From Amoebidium appalachense (lineage: Eukaryota; Protista; Ichthyosporea), in NCBI GenBank assembly GCA_963693365.1, contig CAVNZM010000012.1:1550001-1614000 (forward strand): a stretch of DNA of 64,000 nt, in the 5' to 3' direction. The notes beneath the pieces were generated by a model. It was not told the origin of the DNA, did no database searches, and saw only the letters and a list, made by a program, of their open reading frames with translations. This document shows, in pieces, positions 4,066 through 63,016 of the stretch (the stretch's first letter is position 1; every line of letters starts with the position of its first letter). The position numbers were made by a program, and so were the translations under genes.

Positions 4066-4838
4066 CCCGGCCACATTTCCCCCTACAACAAACCCCTCTC
4101 ACCCCCGGAGCCCGACCCTCCCACTCGTTCTTCTTTCCCCAACCTCCCCCCTTCCCCCCCTCTCCACCTGCATCCCCTGCCGCTGCCTCCATCCCCAGGT
4201 CCTTTCCCCAACCACCACTGTTATGTTCGAAGTCTTCATCAAGTCATTGAGTGTATTTTGTTTCAAAGTAATTATTTCTCTTATCTTTTTTTTTTTTTTT
4301 TTTTTTTTTTTGGGGGGGGGGGGGGGGGGAGCGGGACATATGTGTGTGTGTGTGTGTGGGGGGGGGGGGGGGGAGATTGTGTGTTGCCACCAGCGGATGC
4401 ACCAATCTATATGGCCCAGTCACCCACCCACTCACCAGTGCACGGGCATACACGTTGCTGACCTAGCAATCCCTTACAGGCCACTTTGTCTGATTTATTT
4501 TACCGTAAAAGTTAACGTTGTACCCTTAGGCTACACCACCGCCTTAGAAGGGTGTGTTCCGGTACCTCGGCAGGAGTATCCTTTGCAAATTATTTTTCCA
4601 ACCCAACAAGTTGGTCGTAACATTTTTGACCAGGCGGCCAACGGCCTATAAGTCCATAAATACGAACCGCCCATAGCATGTCATCATCACTGCTGAATGT
4701 ATTTGTTGAGAAAGAACAAGGTCACGGTGCCAAAAGGTCATACTTTGCTAGCAATATTCATCACTGCTGGTTCTGATTACATACTAATTCTAGGCGATAA
4801 TCTCCTAGTACTGTTTCTTATTGTGGGTTGCCTGTCCC

Positions 4839-5465
4839 TTACACGGACATGCACAGCCATCTTCTTATTTTTCTCCTTGTCGACTCACTATTGAACTGTG
4901 AGGAAGGTGTAGCCAAAAGCACCCAATACACCGCAGCATCCAAAGCACCGGCACACCCGTTTAGTGCTGCTTGAAATGGCCCCAACCATTGCGGGGGTTG
5001 TATAGGGATTTGTGGGAAAGAAACAAGTGTAAAAATCACAAATGGGGTCCATGTTACGATGTAAACGAGAACAAAACAGTTCATGTATCGGCCCAGTCTT
5101 CGCTGTTTCGCCAGCCGCCGCTCCTCCGTTGCGGTGGAACTGCTGAGTGCTGATTGGTTGTTGCTGCAGTTGGGAACAGCGGGAACGGCGAAGGCATGGC
5201 CATGGGGCACGACCAGAGCTGGAGAGCTCGGCTTTGCCTGCTGAGCCAGTATCTGTCAATACAAACTACTAGCATTAGTAGGCTGTTAATGCTTTCATTC
5301 AGAATAGGTACACCTTAATGTTTTTATCGAGTATAGGCTAAGTCAATGTTTCATTGAGTATAGGTACACGTGTGCGTGCACGTGCCACGGTATCTCATGT
5401 GTGAGTGTGTGTATGGGGTAGGCGGGCAGATGAGAGGGCGGGCGGGCAGGTGGCGGCGGGGGCGG

Positions 5466-5499
<34 letters not shown>

Positions 5500-7111
5500 G
5501 CAATGAACTAAGTGCGAACCTTAAGCATTGCTATCCTCCCCCCACCTCCCCCTCCCCCCTCTCCCCCCCCCCCCCCCCCCCCCTCCCTCCCTCCCCCCTC
5601 CTCCCCTCCGGGTCTTCCGGTTGCTGTTCGTGAAACATATGCGCCCGGAATCGTATACTTACACATATGAAGCCGTGTGTGTGTGTGCTTTTAAATCCGC
5701 TCGCAATGGTTCAATATTGATAGATGGAATGTTATGTACACACGTGTCTGTGTGTGGTGATAGTGCAATGTGCTCTAAAGTGTGGTGTATGTGTCTAATA
5801 TGAACGGCATGCAGTACAGTACAACGTGTTTAAGTATGAGGGCAGGTGGATATGTGCATACCGTATCAAATGGAGGCCGGGTGTCACAGTCGGGAAGGGC
5901 TGGTTGTTCCGTGGCGCAATTCATGTTGCCTGTGCCTTGTGCGTCAACCAATTCCGTGTCCCGGAAAACTACCGTATTTGGTGTGTTCGCGTCAAGAGCA
6001 TGAGATGTAACACTTGTTTGGGCTTCCCGGTTGGCCGACGTATCAGGATGGCTAATTGAACCCGTGCCATGTGTTGTTGTGTAATCCTCCATTATGATAT
6101 CATGAGTGGGTTGAAGTGTTTGCACCAAATAAGTGGCTGCGCCAATATCTCCTCTCCCACCGGATTGCAAATGCTCATCGTTATTCATACCTGATACAGT
6201 ATTTTCGTTCACCTCGTTTCCTGGTGGCAAATTCAGTGAGGGGTTTCGGCCCTCAGTGCCACCCCAAGCCGGGTTTAGGGGAAACCGAAGGTGATTGGAC
6301 CGGAACCGAGTCGATTGCCATAAACGGTAAGTCGACGTCGGGTAGCAGAAGGCGCACACGAGCAGCGTTAGAAAAGAGTATGCCAAGTTATAGAACACGC
6401 TGAGTATGAAGTATCGCTCGGTCACTCCACATCGCATCACGATCCTGCGGGAGAATAAATGAGTATTAGCTATATTAGCTCTGGGTCACCGAGTTTTGGA
6501 TAAACCACACTAGCCTCGGTCACTCGTAACAGGTGCTTTATCTGAGTACGCGGGTATGTTGAAAGCAAAGTCACTAACAGAGCAATTAGTAGCACCGCCG
6601 AGTGTGATAAATGTGTGGGTGTGTCTTTGTGCACGTCTTCTTCAAGGGTGTTCAAGTGTGTGGATGTCGATATTCATATCTTAGTGCTTGCTTACTTGCT
6701 TTTCCATGATATCTCACAGTTGAAATGTGGATGGGTGTAGCTGCAGCCGTGCATGAGTACATACCTAAATGTATCGAGCAACGATTAAAGTCCTCTACGG
6801 TAGCTGGATTCTGAATGTTGTTACAGTGGGTGATTTTCAAATCAACTTAGCTGGTGAGTGAATGCAAGTTACATAGCGCCGGCGAGGGCCCGGGGCGGGC
6901 CGGGGGGGGGGGGGGGGAGGGGACGGTGGGGGAAAGGGTGGGGGGAGGGGGGGGTAGGGGTGGGTGGGGGGGGGGGGGGGAAGGGGGGGAGGGAGGGGGG
7001 GGGGGGGTTAGATAGGTTTGAAGATCGAGGAAAACGACACTCAGGAAGAAGAAGGACAAGGGGGTGGGAAGGCGGGGTGTGAGGGGAGGTGAAGGTGGTG
7101 GTGGTGGTGGT

Positions 7112-7145
<34 letters not shown>

Positions 7146-7900
7146 GGTGGGAGGGAGGGAGAGGTGGGGGGAGAGAATTTGAAGACAATATAATTATCCT
7201 CCAAGATAGTATATCAAAATCATTTCCGGCATGAGAACGGAAAAAAGGACGGGGGGCGTAAGGAGGTGCCAAAGGAGGGGGAGGGGGGGAAGGGGGGGGG
7301 GGGGTACATGACATTTTAGTTTTATTCTTCGGTTCGGTATTTTTTTTATTATTATTATTTTTTTTTTTTTTTTTGGGGGGGGGGGGGGAGGACCAGGAGA
7401 GTGGCAATGTCATACCTTCCATATCCGTCCGGAAGAGCCAGGGGGATGACAGCCAGCAAAAGAGGCACACCAAATCCCACCAATAGGAGGATTCGGATAC
7501 TTTCTATAATCGGAGATCGGTCTTTAACGATCACCACCCACACGTTCACCGCCACCAACACACGGCAGGTGACACTACACAACTGTCCCCACGTCAACGA
7601 AAACCCAATGAACGCACAAAGACGTGTGCGTGCACATGTTCTCGGGTCGGATAAAAATAGAATGGTGGACAACCCAGAAAGAGCGATATATAGCAAATCG
7701 GCAAGACTGATGAGTCCCGGAAAGAACTGCATGATGGTGAAAGTATGCGGGTGGTATTTCCATATATGGAAGACCTTTAGGATGATGTAGATGCTGCAAA
7801 AGAGAGAAATAGAAGATGTCACCAGGTACACTATCTGCAACGGGGCAATAAGGGTGAAGTTAAAATGTGCAAAAGGTATGCATCCGATTTTTGGTGTGTG

Positions 7901-12349: not shown

Positions 12350-12391
<42 letters not shown>

Positions 12392-12989
12392 ACGCACACA
12401 AACCTACAGGTGGTGTCTTTTGTATGCATCCCCGTAGCACTTTTCCCAAGCACCTACATCATCTTCAAGGTCTTCCAAAAATGGAAAAACGACCGCCAGA
12501 ATTTCAGCGTAATGCAGTTCTTTCCGGGGCTGATAAGTCTGGCCGATTCTCTATGGGCACTTTGTGGTGTTACCGTTGCAGCCGTGCAATATTTTGACCC
12601 GAGCACGTGTGCAAATGCACGTGTGTGCCCTGTTATGGGCTGGGCTTTCACATGGGGTGTTCTATCAGCCACAGTTTGCCCAGCTTTAGTGGCGGTGAAT
12701 GTGTGGGTGGTGATTGTCAAAAACCGATTACCAATCATCAAGAGGATCCGTACACTTCTATTGGTCGGATTCGGCGTGCCGTTTGTCTTGGCCCTCATTC
12801 CACTGGTGCTTCCTAGGGCATACGGAAGGTATGTATATATGTATGCATGATGTGAAATTGTGGCTGAATGTGGCATGTTTGTGTGCAGGTGTGATACTCT
12901 GCACTATGGACCAATCCATAAAGTAATTATTATCAGGCTTATTTCCCTTTAGCCAACAGGAAATAGCGACCAATCCGATTGCCCTGATG

Positions 12990-13072
<83 letters not shown>

Positions 13073-13204
13073 TGTGTGTGTGCGCACGCGCGCGCGTGCG
13101 CGCGCGCACGCGCCGTGCAAATGTGTATCAGTTACAGGTGTGATGGTTTATGATGGGTCTCGAAGCCCCGCTTGTCGCGGGAGATATCAATACTATGGCA
13201 CTAA

Positions 13205-13248
<44 letters not shown>

Positions 13249-15488
13249 CAACGAAGAATTGTTATGAGGTGTGGAGTAACCGAGAGATACTTCGCGCTCA
13301 GCCTACTCTACAATACCTTTCTTCCCCTTCTATCATTGATCGTATCGGCATTCTGTTACTTCACATCCACCTACCGCATTAGGCAATCGATTCGATTTCG
13401 ATCCAGGCACGTGCTATTCCCTTCCCTTAAACTCAGGACCACACGGCCTGCTATCGATGGAAACCGCCCATACGAGCCACAGAACACGGCATGCGAGGTA
13501 CCGGTGGCGATCAACACCAACACAACAGAACCTACGAGACATATCCAAGGAGAGGGCTCATACTATACAGGCACACCCGTTAAAGCGGATGGACGTTTGG
13601 TAAGTTCGCCGCTAGATTCGCAAGAGCACCGAACAGGTGAAGCAGACGTTGAGGCATATGAGGACATGTACGGTTTTGGTTCTAGTCCTACCCACATGCA
13701 AATATCGACCACCGCTGACGCCGTTGGTATTCACACATTCCCGTTTGACCCTTGCCCAAATATGGCTATTTCCCGACACACGGGATTGGCTGAGAGACTG
13801 TGTAATGGCGCTATTTGTCCCCCCGAGGGCCATATGGTGTGCAGCAGACCCCAGCCGACCATTTCAAGCATCTGGAGCCCTGCACGGGCACGCACAAAAG
13901 GTCCCTTCTCTCCCCTCCCCCCATTCCCATCCCCTCTCCCATCCCCACCCCCCCTACCCGGCCGCCCGCCCCCCCCCCCTCCCCCCCCCCCCTCCCTCCT
14001 CCCCCCCCCCCTCCCCCCTCCCCCCCTCCCCCCCTGCCCAGGCTCCCTCGCCTCTATATGGAGGCTCTATGGTTTTAGTCAGATTACCCGTTAGCTCCAC
14101 GTGCAGAACCAAACCCCTTCCTTAGTGGGCGACTATACCTCACCCAAATCTGCTACCAATCATCGCGTGGTCGGATATGCCATAGATCACCATCGAGCAC
14201 CTGAATCTTATAAGAAAAGCGCCTCTGATAGCACATCTTTTCCAAATAAGGCAGGCAATTTGGGTTTCACGGTTCAAAATCTGGGTTTGGGATAGGAATC
14301 TAGAAGGGGGGGGAGGGGGGGTCTTCCAGATTCCCAAACCCAAATCCAAATCTTCAGCGACAACAAGACGAAGCAAGAAAACGCCAAGAACTAAGATGTT
14401 AAGCATATTTCTGGTAAAATATAGGCCTAAATATATTATCTTATTAAGTAGCATTAATATCATGTATGTTTTATAGTGCCTATTATAGTATACTTCTTTG
14501 TTTCTTCATAGGCGTGGTGCGAAGCAGCGGTCATGCCGCATGCGTAACATCTGGGTTTAAAATCTGGGTTAGGGTTTAGGTTTTTGGGTACGGTATAGTC
14601 GCCCAGTGACTGATCTGCCCACACATTCTCAGAATCCTTGCACCTGGCTGCACTCGCTGTAAAAGCTCGCTTTTCTATGCCCAGAATCACTTCATATCAA
14701 CCCCCCCCCCCCCCCCCCCCCATCCCCCCCTTCTCCGCTCCCTCTCTTTTTTCCCATCTCAAATGAATTGAGATGAGGACCGGCGTATAGGGCGCATTTT
14801 CGCGCCACACCCGTGTGAACAGTTTTTCTCGCTTGGATGTTACCGGGGGAATATTATTTTACATTCGCTGCTCCGAACAACGTCCCTCCCCCCTTCCCCT
14901 CCCCCCCCTCCCCCCTCCCCCACTAGAAGGACCCCTTCCCCGCACACCCTTTTCTCCAACCTCTAGGAATTGATCTGTGCCCTGTATACTCTTGGTGGAT
15001 TTGAATTTGGCCCGAGGACATTTGCACCAGAAGTTACACACGGTTTGACTTCACAGAACAAATCACTCCCCTCACCACATACCCATATGTGCACGCCATC
15101 AACGGCGGATATCCCAGAAACATCGACAACCCACGCCATTGGCTCTCTTCCGAACCAATCAGCACTCACCGTAGCGTCTGCGGCCGAAGGAAGTCGACTG
15201 GCCAATCAGCAACGACTTGGCCACCACATGAACCTATTTGTGCTCGTGTATCTGGTCACGTGGTTTCCTTTTGTTCTCTTTACCCTCCTCTCTCTGCCTA
15301 AGAGTCATATTAAGGTGCCCGGGTGGATTGGACCCCTTCAGTCTGCGTGTGCAAGTCTTTCGGGTGTGTTGAATGCGGCGGTGTATTGGGTGTTCCTCAC
15401 GCTGCCCTCGGAGCAAAATAGTGGTGGGGGGTTTTCAAGGTGTGCAAAATTTCGGGTAGCGAAGGATTCTCTGTGTGCCGCAAAGTGA
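11440..15488 (+). CDS. 7TM G-protein-coupled receptor paralog, ~528 aa, 4 exons
   Basis: Exons 11440-11505 ([22 protein letters not shown]), 12410-12828 (419 nt, same length as in the paralog), 13257-13836, 14967-15488 ([20 protein letters not shown]). GT-AG introns, frame conserved. The exon 3/4 boundaries are less certain. Confidence 0.82.
14127..14604. mobile_element. MITE-like non-autonomous DNA transposon (478 bp) with TIRs and a 3-bp AGT target-site duplication
   Basis: Left end AGT|gggcgactatacctcacccaaa; right end tttgggtacggtatagtcgccc|AGT. Perfect 13-bp TIR, extendable to ~22 bp imperfect. No coding capacity. GGGC termini with a 3-bp TSD are reminiscent of the PIF/Harbinger-related group (inference). 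Confidence 0.75.
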
Positions 15489-20436: not shown

Positions 20437-24947
<4,511 letters not shown>

Positions 24948-27387: not shown

Positions 27388-27502
27388 TTTCAATGTGCCG
27401 TATAAGGGCTAAGTACACATTCATGATGGGGACACAGCTACGCAATGAAAATTGTGCAACACATACACAAACAACATGCATCATAAGCATTGCCTATCTT
27501 CA

Positions 27503-27545
<43 letters not shown>

Positions 27546-27667
27546 GAAAAGGAAGTGTAGGTGTGGATGTGTGAGTTAGAAGGGGGAGTGTTGGTGAGGA
27601 AAGTCGATATTGAGGGGAAAGCAAAGAACATGGTGGTGGTGGCGTTTTCTTTTTGGGGGGGGGAGGA

Positions 27668-27704
<37 letters not shown>

Positions 27705-29422
27705 TGGGGGGTACGAAGCACACAATTCACGTTGAAGCACAAGGCAGATTTCGCAAAGTACACGCACACACCAAGCATGCACTATAACTTGAGGCAGGGG
27801 GGGGGGGGGGGGGGGGGGGTTTGAATGCGGCACACGGTACGAAGCACGCATACACGACGAGAAGCATGCTGCAGGACACATGCAAAGGCAAACATTCAAG
27901 TATGCAACATCAGCCATGTGCACAGTATGCGTCATAAGCAGAGCCCATCCTCAGGGGGGGGGGGGGGGGGGGGGGGGGGGGATAATGGACGTACCCTCAT
28001 GCCGTTGCGAAACTGCACCTTCCCTGTCTGCATGTATTCGATCTTCATTTCACACTCCCCGCTCAGCGCGGCTGCACGGATCTGGGGACAAAATACAGTG
28101 TGAGGTACTGGAAAGAAACAGTGTGCATTTTGTGGGTAAACATGAAATTACAAATAGGCGCAAATGCATATTCCGGAGAACAAATCTGTGCATAGATGAA
28201 TTATTGGTATGCTATGAATGAGTACGCAATAGATTGGACTAAAAGAAAATAGAGTGCTGCATACATGGGGGAATATGCAGCAAAGGCGTGGTCCGTGCAT
28301 GCAATTGGACAAATGTGAACGGGCGGTTTTCGACAACGCTTCGCTTTGGCAGCTCAAGAGACGGGCGGGGGGGGGGGGGGGGAGGGGGGGGGGAGGGGGC
28401 GAGGTGACAAACGAATGAAGGACCCGAACCTATGATATCATATCCTGACCGCCCGCCCAGGAGTGTGTGTGTGGGGAGGGGGGGAGGGGGGGAGGGGGAG
28501 GGGGAGGAGGAGGGGAGGGGAGGGGAATGTGTTACAGAATCCGGAGTACACATTCATAACGGGCAACACAATGCAGAGTGCAAAGCACAAACAAAGGGTA
28601 TGCAAATTAAGCAGAGCCCATCCTCGGTGCGCGTGGGGCGCAGGGAGAGGGGGGGGGGGGGGGGGGGGGGGGGGTGGTGAGAAGGGAGGTCATGTATGCA
28701 AAAAGGGTTGGAAACATGAACAAGACACCAAAGGACAAAACACCAAACGTCACTATATATGAAAAATTCTAAATCAAACCATGAAATGGGGCTTGGGGGG
28801 GGGGGGGGGGGGGGGGTCACCTCTGAGCAGGCGTGGTGGTGGGGGTCTGACCAGTCGACCTTTGCCCGACAGTGATCAAACATGTGGATGAGCTCATGTG
28901 CAAGTGTGCGGTCCATGTGGGCTTGGTCACGGATCCGATCCTGGCATAGCCGCACCTGATTGGCTAAGAGTCAGTAATCGATCGATTGCATGCAATCGAA
29001 TTGGTTGGATTTCGGTGGTCGAAGGCAATGTCACTGAATCTACAAAATCGGTCATTATGCAGAGGATGTGAGATTGCGGGGAAATGTCGAAATTCCAAAA
29101 CCATGTAAGGAATGTCAAACGGGCCAGCGTAAGGATTGCATGTAATGTAGCTCCACTTGAACTTGGTTTCCAAATGGCGACAATTTGAGCAAAATTCTCT
29201 CCCTCCACCGTTCTTTTTGGTGTTTGTGCGAGTGTGATGTAATGTTTCAAGAAACGGAAAGAATTCACGGTTATGGTGGCTCATAGCAGTTTGGCATTAT
29301 GCGGAATGGGAAGAGTGGATGGAAGTGGAATAGTGTGAGAAGGGAGAAAGGGGAGGTGAGGGTGTAGATGCGTGTGTGTTCAATGTGGGGGGGAGGGGGG
29401 GGGGGGGCAGAGGGAAGCAGGA

Positions 29423-46198: not shown

Positions 46199-47046
46199 GG
46201 CAGCATCGCCGATCGGATTCGATTAGAGCAATTGTTTTAAAAGCCTATTGTTTAATGGAGCGATTAAACGGGTATTTAACTAAGTAATTTAAAATATATC
46301 ATGTATATGCATTACACCCAAATTCCTCTATGACGTTCCCATTATGTAAACCTCTTACAGCGTTAATATTATCCAAAAATATCAAAAACGAATGCATTGT
46401 ATTATTTTATATAATTCAAGATCATTTTTTGCTACATAGTATATGTTTTTGTGCCATTCACAGACCAGCCACCGCTGAGCCACCAACTTGAAGATTTGCT
46501 TCGTTATAAAAATACCGGTTTTCCATTGGCTAGAAGTTTGGCGGGAAACGCGGGTAGAGCTGTAGGATAAAGCAGACAATTTAAGCATGCTGTATGCTTT
46601 CATCAAAGTCCTGAAAACCAAAACAATATTAATTTGTCGTTTAAAAAAAAACTTTTATCTGTGTATTTGGTTTGTTTGTGTGCTTATATTATTTTTTATC
46701 TTAGGATTCTGAGCAGGGCTAACGACTGGTATTTGCTGCGTTGTAAAATTACCAATTTACCATTGGCTGGATTGTGAGCCCAGAGAATTTTGATGGCGAC
46801 ATCCAATCAGCCAATGAAAAACTGGATAGCTTTTCAATTTGAATCCTTGCCATGGTAGCTACTAGCGGGGAAATTCTAAGTCTACATTGCGTAGACCATT
46901 TGATTACGTCATTCAGTATAGTCTTCCGCCACCGTGGAGGGGCCGACTCTTTGGGGCTAGAAGTTTTGTGTCCAAGGCCCACTATTTTTCCTTGCACTTC
47001 CTTAAACCCAAAAGTTTTTCTTCTCCCGACAAAAACATTCTTTAGA

Positions 47047-47640
47047 ATGGCGGAAACACAAGTCGCACAGCCCCAGCCCGCCCAACCCAACGCCCCAGTC
47101 GGCGGGGCCGCGTCCGCTCCCCCTGCCGGCCAGAGAGTTGCGCTCACACGTGTGGGAGTTAGGATGCTGTTTGACGGCGTGATAAGATCGGAGCTTGTAG
47201 CCCAGGGAAAGAAGAAGTCACCCCTTATTTTCTGGCACAAGGCGAACTTTTCTATCAACCTGCTTGACACTATTGAAGAGTTCAAGCAGCAGGAACAAGT
47301 TTTCGCTCGTCGTGGTCTTACAAGGAGAAAGAATAACATTGGCGAGCCCTCACGCTACTATGACTGTGACGGAGTAAGATACAGTCTTAAGTGGTATGTT
47401 TTCTCCCCGTCAGAAAACGCCGCCGACCTTGAGAAGGTGGCAGATGTTGATAAGGCACCGTGCCCTCTCTACCTGTTTATTGGCAACGTCATTCTTCCTG
47501 GATATGCTTACGTTCAGGTGTTTGAGGAGGGACCTGCTCCCGTTGCGGTGGAGGAAGTGGCTGCTGGGGGTGAAGGTACGAAGACGGACAACGACACGCT
47601 GATGGCCTCTGCTGAGGTGGCAACGGAGGCACCTCAATAG
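47047..47640 (+). CDS. Intronless hypothetical protein, 197 aa
   Basis: High-complexity, GC-richer ORF (MAETQVAQPQP...EAPQ*) inside an AT-rich region, with a globular-looking core and A/P/E-rich tails. CCAAT motifs lie upstream at ~46750-46815. No family recognised. Confidence 0.6.
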   Translation: MAETQVAQPQPAQPNAPVGGAASAPPAGQRVALTRVGVRMLFDGVIRSELVAQGKKKSPLIFWHKANFSINLLDTIEEFKQQEQVFARRGLTRRKNNIGEPSRYYDCDGVRYSLKWYVFSPSENAADLEKVADVDKAPCPLYLFIGNVILPGYAYVQVFEEGPAPVAVEEVAAGGEGTKTDNDTLMASAEVATEAPQ

Positions 47641-51641: not shown

Positions 51642-52559
51642 AAAAAAAAAAAAAAAAACCAACCCCAGGATCCCCCTTATTTCTCTACTCTTTACTCTTT
51701 ACTCCCCCCTCCTCCTCGGCTGCCGCCGCCGCCGACCGACCGAAACCACCCTCACCCTTTTTTTTTTTCCCCGGTTTCTAACTGGTTGTCATGAATCTCT
51801 CTTTGCAGGCCAATTCTCCTGGAGAAACCAGACATTCTCATTGCTACCCCTAGCCGTGTGCTTGCACATCTTCGAGCAAAGGTAGCGTTTGGGAGCTTCC
51901 GAGAAATCCACTTGTTGGTTTCATATATTTTTTCCTGACACTATCTTTTTTCTCCTCTAATGTGTCTGCCCTCCTTAATCCCCCTCCCCCCAGACCGCTT
52001 TACTTCCATGCAACCGGGCATGGTTGCTCTGTGTCGTGCATCTGTAAGCACATACGCATTTTTCGCTGCACTGCATTAGTTTGCACCCACATCTTCACCG
52101 TTTTGCTCACCTTGCTTGCATAAGCAACCCTGCTCGTCTTTGATCAAGACGGGTTGACCCGCCCAAGTTCAGTTAATGCTGCTGTCTGAGTTGGAGCGTC
52201 GTATATACGCGGGCTAAGGGGTCGAAACTCAGACGCAATTGATGACTTGGGTCCTCCCTGAGGATGGGCTCTGCTTATGACGCATACTGTGCACATGGCT
52301 GATGTTGCATACTTGAATGTTTGCCTTTGCATGTGTCCTGCACCATGCTTCTTGTCGTGTATGCGTACTTCGTACCGTGTTCCGCATTCAACCCCCCCCC
52401 CCCCCCCCCCCCACCCACCGACACACGCACACATAAAAATAAACACATAAACACATCCTTCAACCACCCACCCACCCAGCTGCATATCTTTGAAACTTTG
52501 AGGAGTGTGTTTGTGTGTGTGCGCGCGCATGTGCAATTGGCGGTGGTGTTGAGGGCGGT

Positions 52560-52616
<57 letters not shown>

Positions 52617-52634
52617 TGGGAGGTGGGGAGGAGT

Positions 52635-52665
<31 letters not shown>

Positions 52666-52832
52666 GGGGGGGGGGAACGGAGCGGGGGGGAGGGGGGGGG
52701 GGGGAAGCGACACCGACATTAGCAGTCGCACATAAAGTAGGCATGTTCGACGCAAAAGCACTGGCATGTACACTTCAAAAGTTATATACGTGCATCCACA
52801 TACCCACATATGCACACACACACACACGCACA

Positions 52833-52885
<53 letters not shown>

Positions 52886-53344
52886 GTCTCTCTCTCTCTC
52901 GCTCTCGCTCTTAACCGTACATAGTACATACGCACCCACGTACGCACTTACACACTGGCTTACACGTACCCACGTACACGTGCACACCCACACCTGCATA
53001 GACCATGCACGTACACACATGCACGTCCACACACGTCCGCACGTACACACGTGTACACACATGCTCACACGCACCCACCCACACACCCACACACAAAATA
53101 CTCGCATACACACGTACACACGTACACGCACAGACGCTGAGCCTCGAGCTAGTTGAGATGGTTGTTATCGACGAGGCCGACCTTCTGTTCTCGTTTGGCT
53201 ACGAGGAGGATTTGAGGTCCCTTTTGGGCTTCCTGCCGTCCATCTTCCAGTCGTTTGTCATGTCTGCTACTCTTACAAAGGTGGGTCCTTTTTTTTTTTT
53301 TTTTTCTTTTCTTTTTTTTTTTTTTGCCAACCTGCGCGCTTCCT

Positions 53345-53388
<44 letters not shown>

Positions 53389-53707
53389 CCGGGAGGATGT
53401 GCTCTGCCTGTAATGCATACTTTATGCGGGTGCGGGTGTAATGTGATGCGTGTGTGCATGTGTAATTGTGGTTTGTACTCTGCATTGTGTTGTTCGTTGT
53501 GAATGTGTACATCTTTCTCTTTAACACATACTAACCTGTCCCCCCCCCCCCCCAAAAAAAAAAAAAAAAAAAAAAAAACCATCCCCGACCCACCCCCCGA
53601 GAATGGGCTCTGCATGTTATGTATACTCTTTTGTGTGGCACCTGCATGGTGTTGTCCGTTATGAATGCGTACTTCGTCCTCTGACCCATACTACATTCAT
53701 AACTATC

Positions 53708-53747
<40 letters not shown>

Positions 53748-54456
53748 TCTCTCTCAGGATGTTGAGGCCCTGAAGACACTAGTGCTGCGCAACCCAGCCA
53801 TACTGAAGCTGGAAGAGTCACATCTGCCCGAGGATACCTATCTGGCACAGCACTTGGTCATGTATGCTCCCCGATACCCCATTCCACGTGTGTGGGTGTG
53901 GGTGTGGGTGGGGGTGGGTAGGTGTGTGTGGGGGGGGAGGGGGGGGAAGGGGGGTATGTGTGTTTGTGCTTGTGTGGGGGTGGGTGTGGGGATGGGGGGG
54001 TGGGTGGGTGCCTATGTGTGTGGTGTGTGTGTGTGTTAGGGCACGGAGGGGGGGGGTAGGGGGAAGCTGTGTCAGGGATGTGATGATGGGTGTGGCTATC
54101 TGTGTCTATGTGTGTGCTTGCGTGTGTCTGTGCTTTGGTGAAAAGCCTGGGTGGAGTGGATCGGGGTTGGTCCTGGTGATATTCCTTTCTTCGTTGTTCA
54201 TTCGTTCGTTGATGTGTCTATTGTTTGTGCTTAATCTTACGGTAATATTACATTACATAGAATGGGGGATAGGGTGCTGCATGCTCCAGTTTTTCCTAAT
54301 TTTCCTTTTGGTTGACAGGTGTGAGGAGGCAGACAAGCTTCTTGTTCTGTACTCACTGCTTGCATTTAAGCTGATCACCGGCAAGATCATTCTGTTCGTC
54401 AACGGCATAGACGCATGCTACAGGGTCAAGGTGGGTGGGTGGGTGGGTGGGTGGGT

Positions 54457-54503
<47 letters not shown>

Positions 54504-54652
54504 GGGAAGGGGGGGGGGGGGTATAGATGTGCATGGGTGTGGGTTGGTGTGAGTGCGTGGGTGTGTGTGTGTACGTATGTGTGTGGATCTGTGCATGCAT
54601 ACACCCACCTCACACCCACTTGCACGCCCACTTTCACATCAGCAGGGCAACA

Positions 54653-54707
<55 letters not shown>

Positions 54708-55808
54708 GCTCTTAGTCGTGTTCCTTCACCTTGGCTATATCAGCTTCTAGAAGACACATAATGTCACTTCTCACTGCAATATGATGCTCTCCCCTTTTTA
54801 TGTTCCAGTTGTGCAAAATTAACATTTACACGTCGTCCCGCAGCTATTTTTGGATCATTTTTGCATCAATGCATGTGTCCTCAACTCAGAACTCCCCCAC
54901 AACTCGAGGTATCTTCCTTCCCCCCCCCTTCCCCCCAAACCCCCAAACCCCCCCCTCCCCCTAAAAAAAAAACAAAAAAACGCTATCACCATCACTTTAT
55001 GATGCATTATCTTTGTGTGCTTGTCACTCTTTGTTATATCCGTCATGAAAGTGTACTGCATAATCAATAACACCATCCCCCCCCCCCCCCCCCCCCCCCC
55101 CCCCCGCGCATCCCTTCTATAATCCCTTTGGTGTCTCTTCTACCTTAACTCCTTTACCCCTCTTACAACCAAACCCACTTCCTCTCAATTTTATCTTGCC
55201 CACTCTTATGTGTTGATGTGGTTTGGGGAATCGCTGTTTTTTGTCGACTTACCTCTGTCTTTGCCTGATTCCGACATATGTGATAGCAATTGTGGTGGGC
55301 AGGTGGGGTGCTTTTGGCCTTTCTTTTTTTAAAAAGAAAAAGAAACCGTCAGCCCCAAACCAAGCAGGCGAATTGCTATTAAAGAAGGGTTTTTTAGGCC
55401 GATTTATGGGCCCTTTTGGGTCAGGCCAAGTTCCTGTTAAATGCACGCCTCGCCAATCATGAAGCGCAAAACTCTTTCGGGTCTGACCCGACCTGAATCC
55501 AAAAGACATCCCCTTTAACATTCTTCTTCTACGCAGACAACACATTGTGTCAGAGTTCAACCGGGGGGTGTACGACATCATCATAGCCAGTGATGAGAAT
55601 CACGAGCTAGATGACGACACAGATGACGAAGATGACGAGGAGGAGGGTAAGTGCTCACTTTCTATAGGGCAATAACGGCATACGTGCACGTGATCGCGCA
55701 CGTGCATGCGCGCATGTGCACACATCAACAATGAGAACATGCTAGATTGCTTGGACAGCACACACACGAGCGCACATACAAAGTGCAGAGTTTTTTTTTT
55801 TTTGTGTA

Positions 55809-55852
<44 letters not shown>

Positions 55853-57185
55853 GGGGGGGGGGGGGGGGGGGCTTGCTCCATGGCATGAAAGGGGGTGAGG
55901 TACGCTCGTCAACGTGTTGGGAAGTGGGTGCAGTCTTGCACAATAGTACACACTCAAACAACGGACACATGGGTGCATGAACACAAATACACACGCACAT
56001 ACGCACACACACACACAAACAAACACACACACTGACACGCACACAGACACACACCCAAAAACACCCGCGGTGGCACGCAGGTTACTCTCTCGTCCATGGT
56101 GTGCATGTAAGCCCACAACCATATTTGACTTACGTGCAGAGATAACCACACACATGCACCACTCACGTGTTCCTTGTCTTGAAATTCATTGTCAGTGATC
56201 GAGTTGGAGTTGCTTTCTTGACTGGTGCAACAAAGGGGGATGTGTGTGTGTGTTTGGAGGAAAGGGAGGGGGGGGGGGGGGGGTTTGTTGTTGAGAGGTT
56301 CAATTTAGAAAATGGGGGATATTTAGGTTTTAACCCTTTACGTTACTGACATGTTTTGTTTCTGTGCAGAGGTGAGGAGGCCTGGAGCAACGGTGAAGGT
56401 TGAGATGGACGGAGAAAACGAAGAGAAGGAAGAGGGGCAGGAAGGGGAAGAAAAGGAAGGGGAGGAGGAGGAAAAGGAGGAGGAGGGGGAGGAGGAGGGA
56501 GAGGGAGAGGAGGATGAGAAGGATGAAGCAAAGATTAAGGAAGAGCTGGATAGAGTGGCGGCAGAAATAGGTGGGTGTATGTGTGGGGGTGAGGGTGGGG
56601 TGTGGATGGGTGGGTGCGGTGGGTGTGTGGGTGGAGGGGGGGGGGGGGGGGGGGGGGCAGATGTGTGTGTGTGTTTTAGGAGGGGGGGGAAGCAAATGAG
56701 TGGGGGTTAAATGGGGGTTAAACGGGGTGTGCGAGCAGAGAGTACATCGGTGTTTGGGTGATGGGTAAGTGGTGCATGCATGTTTGTCTATGTGCACGAA
56801 TGCTGGTGGGAGGGCAGGTTGAGTGTGCGGGTGGAGCGTGTTTGGTGATTGTGTGTGTGTGTGTGTGTGTGTGTGGTGTATCGTTTGTCGTTTGTCTCCC
56901 CCCCCCCCCCCCCCCCTCCCTGTGGGTGTGGGTGGGTGTGGTGGGTAGGCGTGGGCATGTGTGTTTGTGAATGCGGAGATGCATGAGTGTGCCTGTGTAT
57001 TTTGTGTATATATATGATATATATATATATAAATATATATATATGGGGGGGGGGGGAGGGGGGGGGTGAGGGGAGGAGGAGAGGGGGGAAGGGGGCGCAC
57101 ACATGCTCCTGTCTATGTACCCGAGTGCTAGTGGCCTTGGTGCAGCCTGGATGAGCGGGTGGAGCGGGGTGGTGGTGGTGTGTGT

Positions 57186-57240
<55 letters not shown>

Positions 57241-58085
57241 TTTAGGAGGGGGGGGGGGGGGGGGGGGGGGGAAGGGGGGAGAGTAGAAGTGATAAGGAGG
57301 GGGGATTGGGGGAGGGGGAGGGGGGAAAGGGGAGGGAGAGAGAGAGGAAAGAGTCTGCATGGGGTAACATGAGCGTACAGGCATCTGACTTTATTCCTTA
57401 TGCCCATTGCAGCAGAAAAAGAGGAGAAGGAGAAGAAGAGGAAGAGGAGGAAGGGCCAGCAGGGTGACTCACAGAAAGATGCCGAGTACGGGGTACTTAT
57501 CCCCCCCTGGGCTCTGCTTATGACGCATACTGTGCGCATGGATGATGTTGCATACTTGAATGTTTGCCTTTGCATGTGTCCTGCACCATGCTTCTCATCG
57601 TGTATGCGACTTCGTACCGTGTTCCGCATTCAAACCCCCCCAGTTTTTTTTCAGAGGTGTCCTTTCAGGACAGACCACTGTGTGCAAACCGCTTTACTTC
57701 CATGCAACCGGGCATGGTTGCTCTGTGTCGTGCATCTGTAAGCACATACACATTTTTCGCTGCACTGCATTAGTTTGCACACACATCTTCACCGTTTTGC
57801 TCACCTTGCTTGCATAAGCAACCCTGCTCGTCTTTGATCAAGACGGGTTGACCCTCCCAAGTTCAGTTGATGCTGCTGTCTGAGTTGGAGGAGTCGTATA
57901 TACGCGGGCTAAGGGGTCGAAACTCAGACGCAATTGATGACTTGGGCCCTCCCTGAGGATGGGCTCTGCTTATGACGCATACTGTGCGCATGGATGATGT
58001 TGCATACTTGAATGTTTGCCTTTGCATGTATCCTGCACCATGCTTCTCATCGTGTATGCGTACTTCGTACCGTGTTCCACATTCA

Positions 58086-58120
<35 letters not shown>

Positions 58121-58163
58121 TTTAAAAAGAAAATAGGTGCCGTCAACCACCACCAAGAATAAG

Positions 58164-58195
<32 letters not shown>

Positions 58196-58293
58196 CTCGT
58201 TTTGTGCATACTCTATTTGTGTGCTTTGTACTCTGGGTTGTGTTGTCCGTTATAAATTTGTGTTTCGTACTCTCTCAGGCATCCTAACCCCCT

Positions 58294-58333
<40 letters not shown>

Positions 58334-58973
58334 TACCCTTTTCCTGGTGCATGCTCGTCTAGGGTCATCCAAGAAAGAACAACAACTTATCCCCTTTTTT
58401 CACTCTACAATGTGTCTTTGTTTTCTTTCCCTTTCAACGCCGTCATTTCACCCCAAGAATAATATTCATCACCCCTGACCATGCTTCTCTTTTTCTTTTC
58501 TTTCCTTTCTTTTCCCCTTCCCCCCCCCCCCCCCCCCTTTTTTTTTCCCCTCCCATGCAGATGACGCGCGGTGTTGACTTTATCGACGTTGACTGGGTAG
58601 TAAACGTGGATTTCCCCACCCACGCCAACGCCTACGTGCACAGGGTGGGCCGTACTGCACGTGCAGGCAAACACGGAAACGCACTGTCCTTTGTGACCAA
58701 CCCGACACACCGTATGGTGTTGGAAAGAATAGAGAAGAAATTGAGAAGTATGTTTTGTCACCCCCCTGTTTCCCCCTCCCCCCCCCCCCCCCCCCCCCTC
58801 CCCTCCCTCCCTCACACTCACACACCCCACCCCACCTCACCCCCTTCACACACACATATTTGCATGCACAAACACACACGTGGTAGCAGACGCATGCTCA
58901 TGCACACACAGCATACACACACAGACACACACATCTCTCTCTCTCTCTCTCTGTCTTTCTCCCTCTCTCTCTG

Positions 58974-59036
<63 letters not shown>

Positions 59037-60351
59037 GTCAACCGTCATACAGATATTTTCCCAACCTTCCACGTCCCCCCCCCCCCCCACTGCTCTACAT
59101 ATGTTTCATGCTCGCTTGAACTCTTGCATGTGGACAGAGTCTACCTCACCTTGTCGTAACGTGAGTGTCAGGCCTTGCACACCTTGTTGTGTGCCTACTC
59201 TGCCCTCCCCCCCCCCCCCCCCCCCCTCCCCCTTCCCCTCGCGCGGGAGGATGAGCTCTGCTTGTTATGCATACCCCCTGCGTGGTTTGCACCCAACTTT
59301 ATGTTTTTCCGTTATCGTATTGTGTACTTCGCACTCTATGACAAATTCTAACCCCCCTCTCCCCCCACCCCCCTTTTTTTCCCACTTTACGTGTGTGTGT
59401 GTGTGCGTGTGTGCGTGTGCGTGTGTGTGCAGTCCACAGCAGCACGCAGAACAGCAGTGAGTCTGTGCTCAAACCTTACAAGTTCTCAACAAAGAAGGTT
59501 GAGGGGTTGCGCTACCGTGTGCAGGTACGTTTTTCTTTTCTTTTCTTCTTCTTCTTCTTTTTTTTTTTTTTTTTTGTAGTTGTTGTTGTTTTGGGGAAGA
59601 TATGTTGAACATGGCACCCCAACTCAAAACCAGGCCATCTTAGCGGTCGGTGCGTGGCCTCCGATGCATCGGTCGAAAACTGTATTTCATAGATAATGAG
59701 ACATAAAGCTTCCTGATTATGAGCCAATCAATCGGTCTTTTTGGATCAGTAATGGGTAATGAATGTTTTACTAGAGGTCAAAAACCAGGCAGTTTAAAAC
59801 CTATTAACTGTGTACATAAGCAGAGAAATTACGACATGATATAAAAAAATATATTATTTTCTTATAATATTATGTTGCAATTAGTTTGAATCATTCAAAA
59901 ACTTACGTGAAAGTTATACATTTGGCTATACCAAATACTTGTAGCCAATCAGAGAACAAATGTGCACTTTGCGATCACGAACCAGCAGAGCTGTTGATTG
60001 GCCGCACACTCACAATTATTGGACCTAACCAATCATTCTCTAACGGCAAAAGCACTATATCGCCTATGTTTTTGAAAGGTGAAAGAAAAGGTAGATTTAC
60101 GTTTAATGGCTTTTTGTCACTTCTAGAGCCAATGGGAACGTCCCGTAAAAAATATTGCACATTTTAGAACCAAGTCATCCCATTTAGCCACATTTGTTGA
60201 TTTCGCATTAATGAGGAAGATTTTATTTCTGACTATATTTGTATCAATCATCATATGTGTGTTTTTCAAAGTGAAAAAAAAAAACTATATTTCTGTTAGA
60301 AAAAAAAAAATATAGCTAAATGAAAATACTAGAAACATACATATATATATG

Positions 60352-62108: not shown

Positions 62109-63016
62109 TTGGGCCCTCTCTGAGAATGGGCTCTGCTTGTACGCATACTGTGGCCCCCCCTCCCCCCTCCCCCCTCCCCCCCCCCCTGTGGATGACGTGC
62201 GCCCCCCTGAGGATGGGCTCTGCTCAAGATGTCTCTTTATGTATGGTTTGCATTCTGCATCGTGTTATCCGTTGTTCATGTGTACTTCGTACCTTACGAC
62301 GCATTCAAACCCCCCCCCCCCCCCCCCCCCCCCCCCTCCCCCCCCCCCCCCCCCCCCCCCCCCCTGCGCACCGGGACACATGTCACCACTCCGATGCTCG
62401 AATCGTAACCCTTCCTCCCTCCCTCCGCTCTCCCCCCCCCCCTCTGGCTGATGTTGCATACTTGAATGTTTGCCTTTGCATGTGTCCTGCACCATGCTTC
62501 TCATCGTGCATGCTTACTTCGTACCGTGTTCCGCATTCAAACCCCCCAAGTCTTCTTTCAGAGGTGTCCTTTCAGGACAGACCACTGTGTGGAGACCGCT
62601 TTACTTCCATGCAACCGGGCATGGTTGCTCTGTGTCGTGCATCTGTAAGCACATACACATTTTTCGCTGCACTGCTTTAGTTTGCACACACATCTTCACC
62701 GTTTTGCTCACCTTGCTTGCATAAGCAACCCTGCTCGTCTTTGATCAAGACGGGTTGACCCTCCCAAGTTCAGTTGATGCTGCTGTCTGTGTTGGAGAGT
62801 CGTATATACGCGGGCTAAGGGGTCGAAACTCAGACGCAATTGATGACTTGGGCCCTCCCTGAGGATGGGCTCTGCTTATGACGCATACTGTGCGCATGGC
62901 TGATGTTGCATACTTGAATGTTTGCCTTTGCATGTGTCCTGCACCATGCTTCTCATCGTGCATGCTTACTTCGTACCGTGTTCCGCATTCAAACCCCCCC
63001 CCCCTCCCCCCCTACC

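Follow-up and report, generated by a model that had tools for sequence, protein, structure and literature searches.

The repeat at positions 57508..58094 (+) of the window, by which we mean the whole 64,000-nt stretch of DNA that was analysed, carries the parts of a hammerhead ribozyme in a scrambled order. Five full ribozyme copies, which belong to three subfamilies of this repeat, are present in the window. Comparison of the copies makes it highly probable that the core is split between A9 and G10.1 by two extra helices. From rough geometry, the palindromes in the linker and RNA-like contigs that span the cut site we favour a domain-swapped double hammerhead over a single folded molecule, a tentative reading to which we give slightly less than an even chance.

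Core strands and their order

The three core strands are found where the original prediction placed them, with the cleavage strand at 57878-57891 (GUU at 57884-86), GAAA at 57919-22 and CUGAGGA at 57953-59. The same layout recurs, as had been claimed, at 22051, 23078, 52184 and 62785, UH and GAAA being 27-32 nt apart and GAAA and CUGA 30-31 nt. The ribozymes at 57878, 52184 and 62785 belong to subfamily A, 22051 to subfamily B and 23078 to subfamily C. In all five copies the order is cleavage strand, GAAA, CUGANGA, which is no circular permutation of types I-III, again in agreement with the prediction. By analogy, this scrambled hammerhead core is predicted to cut 3' of U57886.

All five full copies contain CUGANGA, GAAA and an NUH triplet with A15.1-U16.1, together with a stem III of 8 bp, a stem II of 5 bp (formed with an upstream strand, see below), a stem I of 3-4 bp and G10.1-C11.1, and the helices covary. 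Every catalytic position is kept in the five copies while the helices change on both sides, and N7 (G/U) is the only core base that varies. No variant in CUGANGA, GAAA or GUU is listed at or above 5% or 3% in the sequencing runs examined.

The cyclic order of types I-III is absent, and standard models miss the motif as anticipated: no Rfam hammerhead matches the whole window at E<=5, or 57780-58000 at E<=10. A strict descriptor (stem III of at least 5 bp, stem I of at least 3 bp) recovers four of the five copies; the one at 62785 fails because of a single mismatch in stem III. By chance the descriptor matches 0.005 times per window, i.e. once in 200 block-wise dinucleotide-shuffled windows with both strands counted, and when the upstream 5-bp helix is added there are no matches in 200 shuffled windows.

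Several other candidates were set aside. A descriptor match at 7637-7726 has no stem I, lies within a minus-strand ORF and is attributed to chance. Checks by eye and with the descriptor also led us to drop three other readings: a hammerhead on the minus strand, a type I arrangement using a downstream GAAA, and a degraded type III core located between GUU and GAAA. A pattern scan of metagenome contigs gave 59 matches, none with a fitting cleavage block (57 had no cleavage block, and two had a stem III of 3-4 bp and a stem I of 2 bp). Scans of viral contigs gave 3, 0 and 1 matches, the last of them without a GAAA block, and a profile of the five copies has no match at E<=0.01 in all 63 fetched loci.

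Stem II and the architecture of the ribozyme

Stem II had been drawn as ggctct/ggggtc, using a strand downstream of CUGAGGA (57962-67). This pairing breaks at two of six positions in B and shows no two-sided changes; the covarying partner is gacNN at 57850..57854 (+), where G10.1 is 57850, a strand that precedes the cleavage strand and is separate from CUGANGA. With this partner all five pairs are Watson-Crick in all five copies, with two two-sided changes and the canonical G10.1-C11.1. The downstream stem II is probably wrong.

Read from 5' to 3', the order is P0, P1, the 5' strand of stem II, return arm, kink-turn, stem III, GUU, stem I and a palindrome, after which the 3' half continues with the 3' strand of stem II, GAAA, stem III, kink-turn, return arm, stem I, CUGANGA and P0. 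The P0 5' strands (8 bp outer and 3 bp inner) at 57813..57824 (+) pair with 57961-63 and 57967-74. The P1 hairpin follows at 57826..57848 (+), its loop being the centre of an 8-nt palindrome (57834-41). Behind stem II, the 5' strand of the return arm at 57856..57865 (+), with 6 bp, a bulged U and a 3-bp C-stem, pairs with 57938-46 and covaries. The bulged strand of the kink-turn (3-nt bulge, G1b, A2b, 3b) occupies 57866..57871 (+), with its partner at 57935-37, and 57872..57886 (+) holds the 5' strand of the proximal stem III, 12 bp to the kink-turn, and the GUU. The 5' strand of stem I at 57887..57890 (+), with 3-4 bp conserved, pairs with 57949-52. A perfect 10-nt palindrome in the S-G linker, 57895..57904 (+), is a candidate dimerisation site, with counterparts at 22065-74 in B (majority allele) and 23098-103 in C. 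Then follow the 3' strand of stem II, GAAA, the 3' arm of stem III, the kink-turn partner and the return arm within 57914..57946 (+), and finally the 3' strand of stem I, CUGAGGA, a U and the P0 3' strands within 57949..57974 (+), which include the stem II strand of the original prediction.

The 30 nt between GAAA and CUGANGA are thus paired with upstream sequence and no mere spacer. Stem III reaches 12 bp up to a standard kink-turn, and beyond it come the 3-bp C-stem, the bulged U and 5-6 pairs. Among A, B and C we count three two-sided changes in stem III, three in its extension, two in the C-stem and three in the outer pairs, and the return arm has five in nine columns; the basis of this covariation is the three subfamilies, a small number. 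In the MAFFT alignment stem III of C is shifted out of register, and the pairs were counted on hand-set coordinates. Arm lengths are constant across the subfamilies, 12 bp in the proximal and 8-9 bp in the return arm. For stem I, ggagg/cctcc does pair as drawn, but the 5 bp are private to the 57878 copy, with 4 bp in the other two A copies and 3 bp in B and C.

Using the standard definition in the available part of PMC5061560, the kink-turn pattern (3-nt bulge, tandem G.A/A.G, flanking helices) is found in four of the five copies and in all three subfamilies; the exception is the copy at 52175, where G1b is changed to A. As in Kt-7 and the box C/D kink-turn (PMC5061560), a 3-nt bulge is followed by G.A and A.G between two helices. 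In B and C the 3b.3n pair is A.G, as in Kt-7, and ion-folding by rule 2 of the same source; in A it is U.U. In contrast to the standard kink-turn, this one lies within a hammerhead stem III, a combination for which one paper, on synthetic switches, was matched in the available literature.

The downstream strand can instead pair upstream as P0, and a junction made up of P0 and hairpin P1 then lies between A9 and G10.1. P0 and P1 show no covariation in the window copies, as the sequences of A and B hardly differ and C is cut short. Breaks in the B copy are mended by the majority alleles of two DNA runs, at 22050 (0.996-0.999) and 22114 (0.94-0.96), and the upstream-helix partners 22028 and 22082 vary at similar shares of 0.03-0.04 (depth in run X17 1424.1 and 1423.8). 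The minimum-energy fold, computed without pseudoknots, contains neither stem I nor stem II (z -1.7). Overall, the fold as first drawn captured the hammerhead core but missed three features: the kinked extension of stem III, the junction of P0 and P1, and the palindrome in the linker. A construct therefore has to begin no later than 57810, and two molecules may be required.

Natural non-circular permutations have been published, as the original prediction stated: types SGC and CSG, from metatranscriptomes (available part of PMC10085705). According to that text, Eckert et al. 2023 named the order S>G>C 'type SGC' (HRIMA-1 and variants), with 583 examples from RNA data and cleavage at 0.007-0.19 per minute. 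Their search pattern allows an S-G linker of at most 8 nt and a G-C linker of at most 15 nt, with a stem I of at least 4 bp, and they assumed that CUGANGA and its flanking strands are inseparable, which limits hammerheads to six permutations.

The element resembles type SGC in its block order, in CUGANGA-U-G and C-GAAA, and in a helix that links stems I and II at their outer ends. It differs from the available description in length (~160 nt against an average of 61-65 nt), in being a genomic repeat and not RNA data, in its upstream stem II 5' strand where type SGC has an unbroken C block, in its linkers of ~18-23 and 20 nt, and in the kink-turn and the palindrome. The word 'kink' is absent from the available part of the supplement of PMC10085705. 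Since the covarying stem II partner lies ~100 nt upstream, the CUGANGA block itself is split and the element is not plain type SGC. The published limits on linkers and stem I are also violated, and with linker limits of 8 and 15 nt the published pattern would miss the motif. For these two reasons, the broken C block and the linker lengths, we do not file the element as type SGC. In our reading, the published SGC chain, closed and then reopened at A9/G10.1, gives the order of the element.

There is still a slim chance that this is plain type SGC, with the downstream GGGCUCU forming stem II through a U insertion and a G bulge and the upstream GACNN serving as an inhibitory strand. The downstream strand still pairs 4-6 bp in five of five copies, in C the two options are equally stable (downstream -6.7, upstream -6.4), and CUGANGA-U-G and C-GAAA match the cores of the published SGC descriptor and of SGC-1 (available part of PMC10085705). 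However, besides being invariant and G-U rich and having no two-sided changes and two non-pairs in B, this strand has another partner in P0, seven Naiad tails of the same layout lack a downstream stem II, and an upstream inhibitor would be the first helix to form in transcription.

These tails come from Naiad/Chlamys Penelope-like elements (Craig et al. 2021), which are reported, in the available part of PMC8557442, without canonical hammerheads, eight being marked HHR_half_core; Chlamys elements insert in (C)n. By eye, 55 of the 62 'ctgatga' places in the supplement were examined. They comprise 25 table rows of canonical motifs and 30 places in sequences, the latter divided into seven split-core Naiad tails, two CSG-like, one type I and 20 without such a fold or unparsed. 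The seven tails (places 28-31, 37, 40 and 41) show P0-P1-upstream stem II-S-G-C, none of them with a downstream stem II as judged by eye; as three and two of them are close relatives, they represent about four independent forms. The element shares with Naiad/Chlamys partial tandem copies, 5' truncation, (C)n insertion and, by eye, the split-core wiring, and differs from what is available on them in the absence of an ORF, a longer proximal arm, the palindrome and an ichthyosporean-looking host. In the available main text of PMC8557442 the string 'ichthyospor' does not occur and the fold is not described.

The same supplement contains two Naiad tails (places 34 and 35) that look by eye like intact-core type CSG, the CUGAUGA block being flanked by a long helix; only two CSG sequences were available to Eckert et al. 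(available part of PMC10085705). Two Naiad tails at the 'tcgaaac' places 8 and 10 of PMC8557442 share another, GC-rich 3' motif. It has no hammerhead layout. This motif may be a different ribozyme, HDV-like.

The repeat element and its host locus

The element at 57508..58094 (+) belongs to subfamily A and comprises ~1.3 units of 452 nt, with 57508-57637 repeated from 57960; it ends in a genomic poly-C tract. An internal C7 tract at 57635..57641 (+), directly 3' of the fixed 3' end motif, is the putative annealing site for a nicked poly-G target strand. The other A copies with a full ribozyme are a 5'-truncated one at 51991..52399 (+), in which the kink-turn G1b is changed, and one of 1.2 units at 62445..63000 (+), which has the mismatch in stem III. 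The B copy at 21713..22237 (+) has a full ribozyme with three private departures from the majority allele, and the C copy at 23045..23292 (+), with the core CUGAUGA, is truncated inside P1. Eleven copies are short 3' fragments, for example 22508..22657 (+), which starts behind the cut site, and most of the eleven are flanked by C-rich tracts. A short A fragment at 27813..27960 (-) follows a stretch that resembles an exon and has a GT donor. With a profile of the five full copies, 10 further fragments are found in the window.

The element is thus ~450 nt long and non-coding, and two of the 16 window copies (57508-58094 and 62445-63000) exceed one unit, at 1.2-1.3 units; no window copy has two whole ribozymes. 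All 16 copies stop at a C tract with the same 3' terminus, and their 5' ends vary; most short copies stand between two C tracts. Eleven start at +24 to +113 past the predicted cut and five run through it. None of the 16 starts within 20 nt of the predicted cut, with edges in poly-C being approximate, so the genome gives no sign of cut templates. Pfam finds no RT or endonuclease, and no autonomous partner came to light, in 26 of the 51 candidate ORF stretches of the window. Non-coding sequence, partial tandem copies, a fixed 3' end, ragged 5' ends and a microsatellite target are traits of retrozymes and Penelope elements, and the repeat is likely a non-coding element that was retrotransposed and inserted in poly-C tracts. 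A type I hammerhead per unit, as in non-LTR retrozymes, is not found by Rfam or the descriptor. The window has 110 C runs and 61 G runs of at least 10.

Contigs over the subfamily A stretch number 14,484 in DNA run X1 and 9,913 in X3, which is not a copy number but shows a large, diverse family. Part of the element is present in 20 of the 24 sequencing runs listed, from seven studies with five organism labels.

The description as a multicopy intronic repeat holds, given the five ribozyme copies, the further fragments and an X20 contig that spans the intron. This contig joins 57492 to the exon start at 58561 with GT/AG borders, so the element is intronic and X20 holds spliced RNA. The intron is closed by a DDX56/DBP9-like host exon at 58561..58746 (+). 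The best named matches to its 62 residues are labelled Ihof (80%) and CFRG (77%), after which the score drops. We take both labels to be ichthyosporeans, and one 62-residue exon gives the broad lineage at most. On both strands copies lie in sense with flanking exons, in the DDX56-like gene at 52184-59357 (+) and in an exon-like stretch with a GT donor at 27455-28777 (-).

Four X20 contigs close a 452-nt cycle. We rejected this as proof of circular RNA, as read-through of a 1.3-unit copy would give the same cycle. Over 57576-58057, a single A haplotype is seen in X20, in which five alleles stand at 100%, against 26-47% in the DNA runs X1 and X3; it seems that a sub-lineage is transcribed or that the strain differs. 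The stem I allele is less skewed between the DNA runs and the RNA-like ones than a share of 2% in DNA would suggest: one haplotype is aligned two ways, and its share in the DNA runs is ~30-40%. At 21895-22240, X17 and X20 contain a further subfamily with linked changes at 22082, 22112 and 22113 and an insertion behind 22118. Its contig of 898 nt includes ~740 nt of upstream sequence, such sequence is also present on a B-type contig of 552 nt, and either could lead to a longer or autonomous element.

Elsewhere in the window, exons at 7355-7800 (-), 12368-15488 (+) and 4343-6485 resemble, by eye, several related seven-helix receptor genes; Pfam has no confident match on the single exons scanned. 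An open frame of 265 codons at 46843-47640 (+) has no Pfam match in the part scanned, and at 20438-20800 (+), upstream of the B copy, a frame start shows a RING-like cysteine pattern.

One molecule or two

To judge whether the predicted fold can close, we used a rod-and-string estimate with assumed constants of 2.8 Å rise and 6.5 Å per nucleotide. In hammerheads, stems II and III stack (available part of PMC10085705). With this stacking, ~64 Å separate the kink-turn from the top of stem II, and the return arm reaches at most 27 Å, with a one-nucleotide link to stem II. In a monomer the gap would be 38-51 Å for stem II, against 13 Å of linker, and 27-39 Å for stem I, against a linker reach of 20-26 Å. 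By this estimate one molecule cannot join both ends with stems II and III stacked, and for this reason two molecules would dock head to tail. In a sketch of the dimer, the two close unstrained at a predicted rod spacing of 20-23 Å, about one helix width; the 3' spacers suffice in all three subfamilies and the 5' spacers in two, that of B being 4-5 Å short.

The S-G linker is palindromic in each subfamily with different letters: the perfect 10-nt palindrome in A, another in B and a 6-nt palindromic loop in C. The B palindrome is perfect in the majority allele (share 0.986-1.0; at 22070, 0.986-0.989 in two DNA runs). Shuffling gives P values of 0.013 (A), 0.006 (B) and 0.11 (C), to be read with the facts that the palindrome was picked afterwards, that the hairpin stem supplies part of it and that A and B are related. 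The homoduplex is estimated at -11 to -18 kcal/mol, against -1.5 to -2.7 for the hairpin. The P1 loop is also self-complementary, in A (57834-57841) and B (22010-22015), and is a possible second contact between molecules.

According to the double-hammerhead model, each RNA would form a bent arm, one end of which carries the cleavage strand and GAAA and the other CUGANGA and the stem II 5' strand. Docked molecules would swap stems I and II and be joined through the palindromes of their linkers, with the kink-turn and the 9-bp arm holding the two rods ~20 Å apart. Cleavage is then likely to take place only upon pairing of two copies. A two-copy transcript, or two transcripts, would be cut in concert after U57886, giving a unit-length RNA that could close to a circle, and a single copy, whether in an intron of the host or in a circular monomer, would remain uncut.

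Dimeric hammerheads are known from amphibian retrozymes, some of which cut well only as dimers (available parts of PMC7229834 and PMC6155905). The element resembles the non-LTR retrozymes of these sources and of bioRxiv 10.64898/2026.07.22.740005, as far as available, in being a short, non-coding hammerhead repeat linked to Penelope elements, with units in a similar range (170-400 nt there, 452 here). However, retrozymes contain type I hammerheads that dimerise by an extension of stem III, whereas the predicted swap here concerns stems I and II, and circular RNA has been demonstrated for them.

The same split-core wiring could also be active in a monomer, which we regard as the less likely course. 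Here the kink-turn would fold the arm back, part of it (the outer 6 bp or the 5-bp extension) would open, and the core would dock in cis. The arm in its fully paired form would represent a resting state, and a protein of the L7Ae family, for instance Snu13, might lock or release it. All the wiring evidence applies to this reading as well, and the fixed arm lengths are as in a compact fold. Published type-SGC RNAs cut despite the same distance puzzle, noted by Eckert et al. (available part of PMC10085705). Among the Naiad tails, a form whose label we read as octopus-type closes as a monomer by the same estimate (gap 11-22 Å, reach 26 Å). However, both the proximal and the return arm helices covary, so they are selected as paired, and the linker palindromes are left unexplained. 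A form whose label we read as coral-type fails monomer closure (28 Å against 13 Å), and place 37 has a straight arm of 14 bp with 2-3-nt links and no kink, ~62 Å against 26 Å by hand, which is beyond any hinge.

An X20 contig bridges the A cut site (57791-57929) at depth 185, between 117 and 168, with no dip; X17 and X20 are one sample, and its RNA nature is a guess. Such intact contigs fit lone copies that stay uncut, as expected from the double hammerhead, and equally copies that are religated, inert or partly DNA. An inert fold with no or negligible cutting, kept as a structured handle for a partner's reverse transcriptase or a kink-turn-binding protein, is improbable in our estimate, somewhat less so than plain type SGC. 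It agrees with these unbroken RNA-like contigs, with the absence of copies that start at the predicted cut, with a stem I of a mere 3-4 bp and with a core split by two helices, which has no tested precedent in the literature searched. Against it stand the catalytic positions that are kept in five of five copies beside covarying helices, with no core variant listed in the runs examined. The lack of copies that begin at the cut, the crude geometry, the post hoc palindrome, the downstream pairing that survives in A and C, the Naiad form that can close alone and RNA from one sample are what hold our preference for the double hammerhead at its tentative level, followed by the monomer, the inert fold and plain type SGC.

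For transposition of the element we infer a poly-C priming step and an enzyme from an autonomous partner. The reverse transcriptase would come from a Naiad/Chlamys-like Penelope element or a HERO-like one and would use as primer a nicked poly-G strand that has annealed to the C tract of the RNA. Priming of this kind would yield a fixed 3' end, variable 5' ends and copies of 1.2-1.3 units.

A split core, a kink-turn in a natural stem III and such an element in ichthyosporeans have no description in the available literature searched, the scope of which excludes subscription papers and bioRxiv supplements. New here are the failure of monomer closure by rough geometry, the subfamily-specific linker palindromes and the contigs that are intact across the cut site. 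A broader and more doubtful proposal is a class of hammerheads, common in retroelements of the Naiad type and their kin in hosts that range from a unicellular holozoan to animals, with a core split at A9/G10.1 and spaced by a kink-turn, in which a palindrome-nucleated, domain-swapped dimer would cut both transcript ends and spare single copies and monomer circles.

A natural core opened at A9/G10.1 would break the rule that CUGANGA is inseparable, and it is invisible to Rfam and to the published patterns. It would be the ribozyme that Naiad reportedly lacks, and its range would extend to what is likely a single-celled relative of animals. If true, cutting by pairs only would explain how self-cutting RNA can lie in sense orientation in host introns and how circles avoid re-cutting. 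It could also explain how 'ribozyme-less' jumping genes process their transcripts and spare host messages, by a two-component ribozyme that is possibly gated by a protein.
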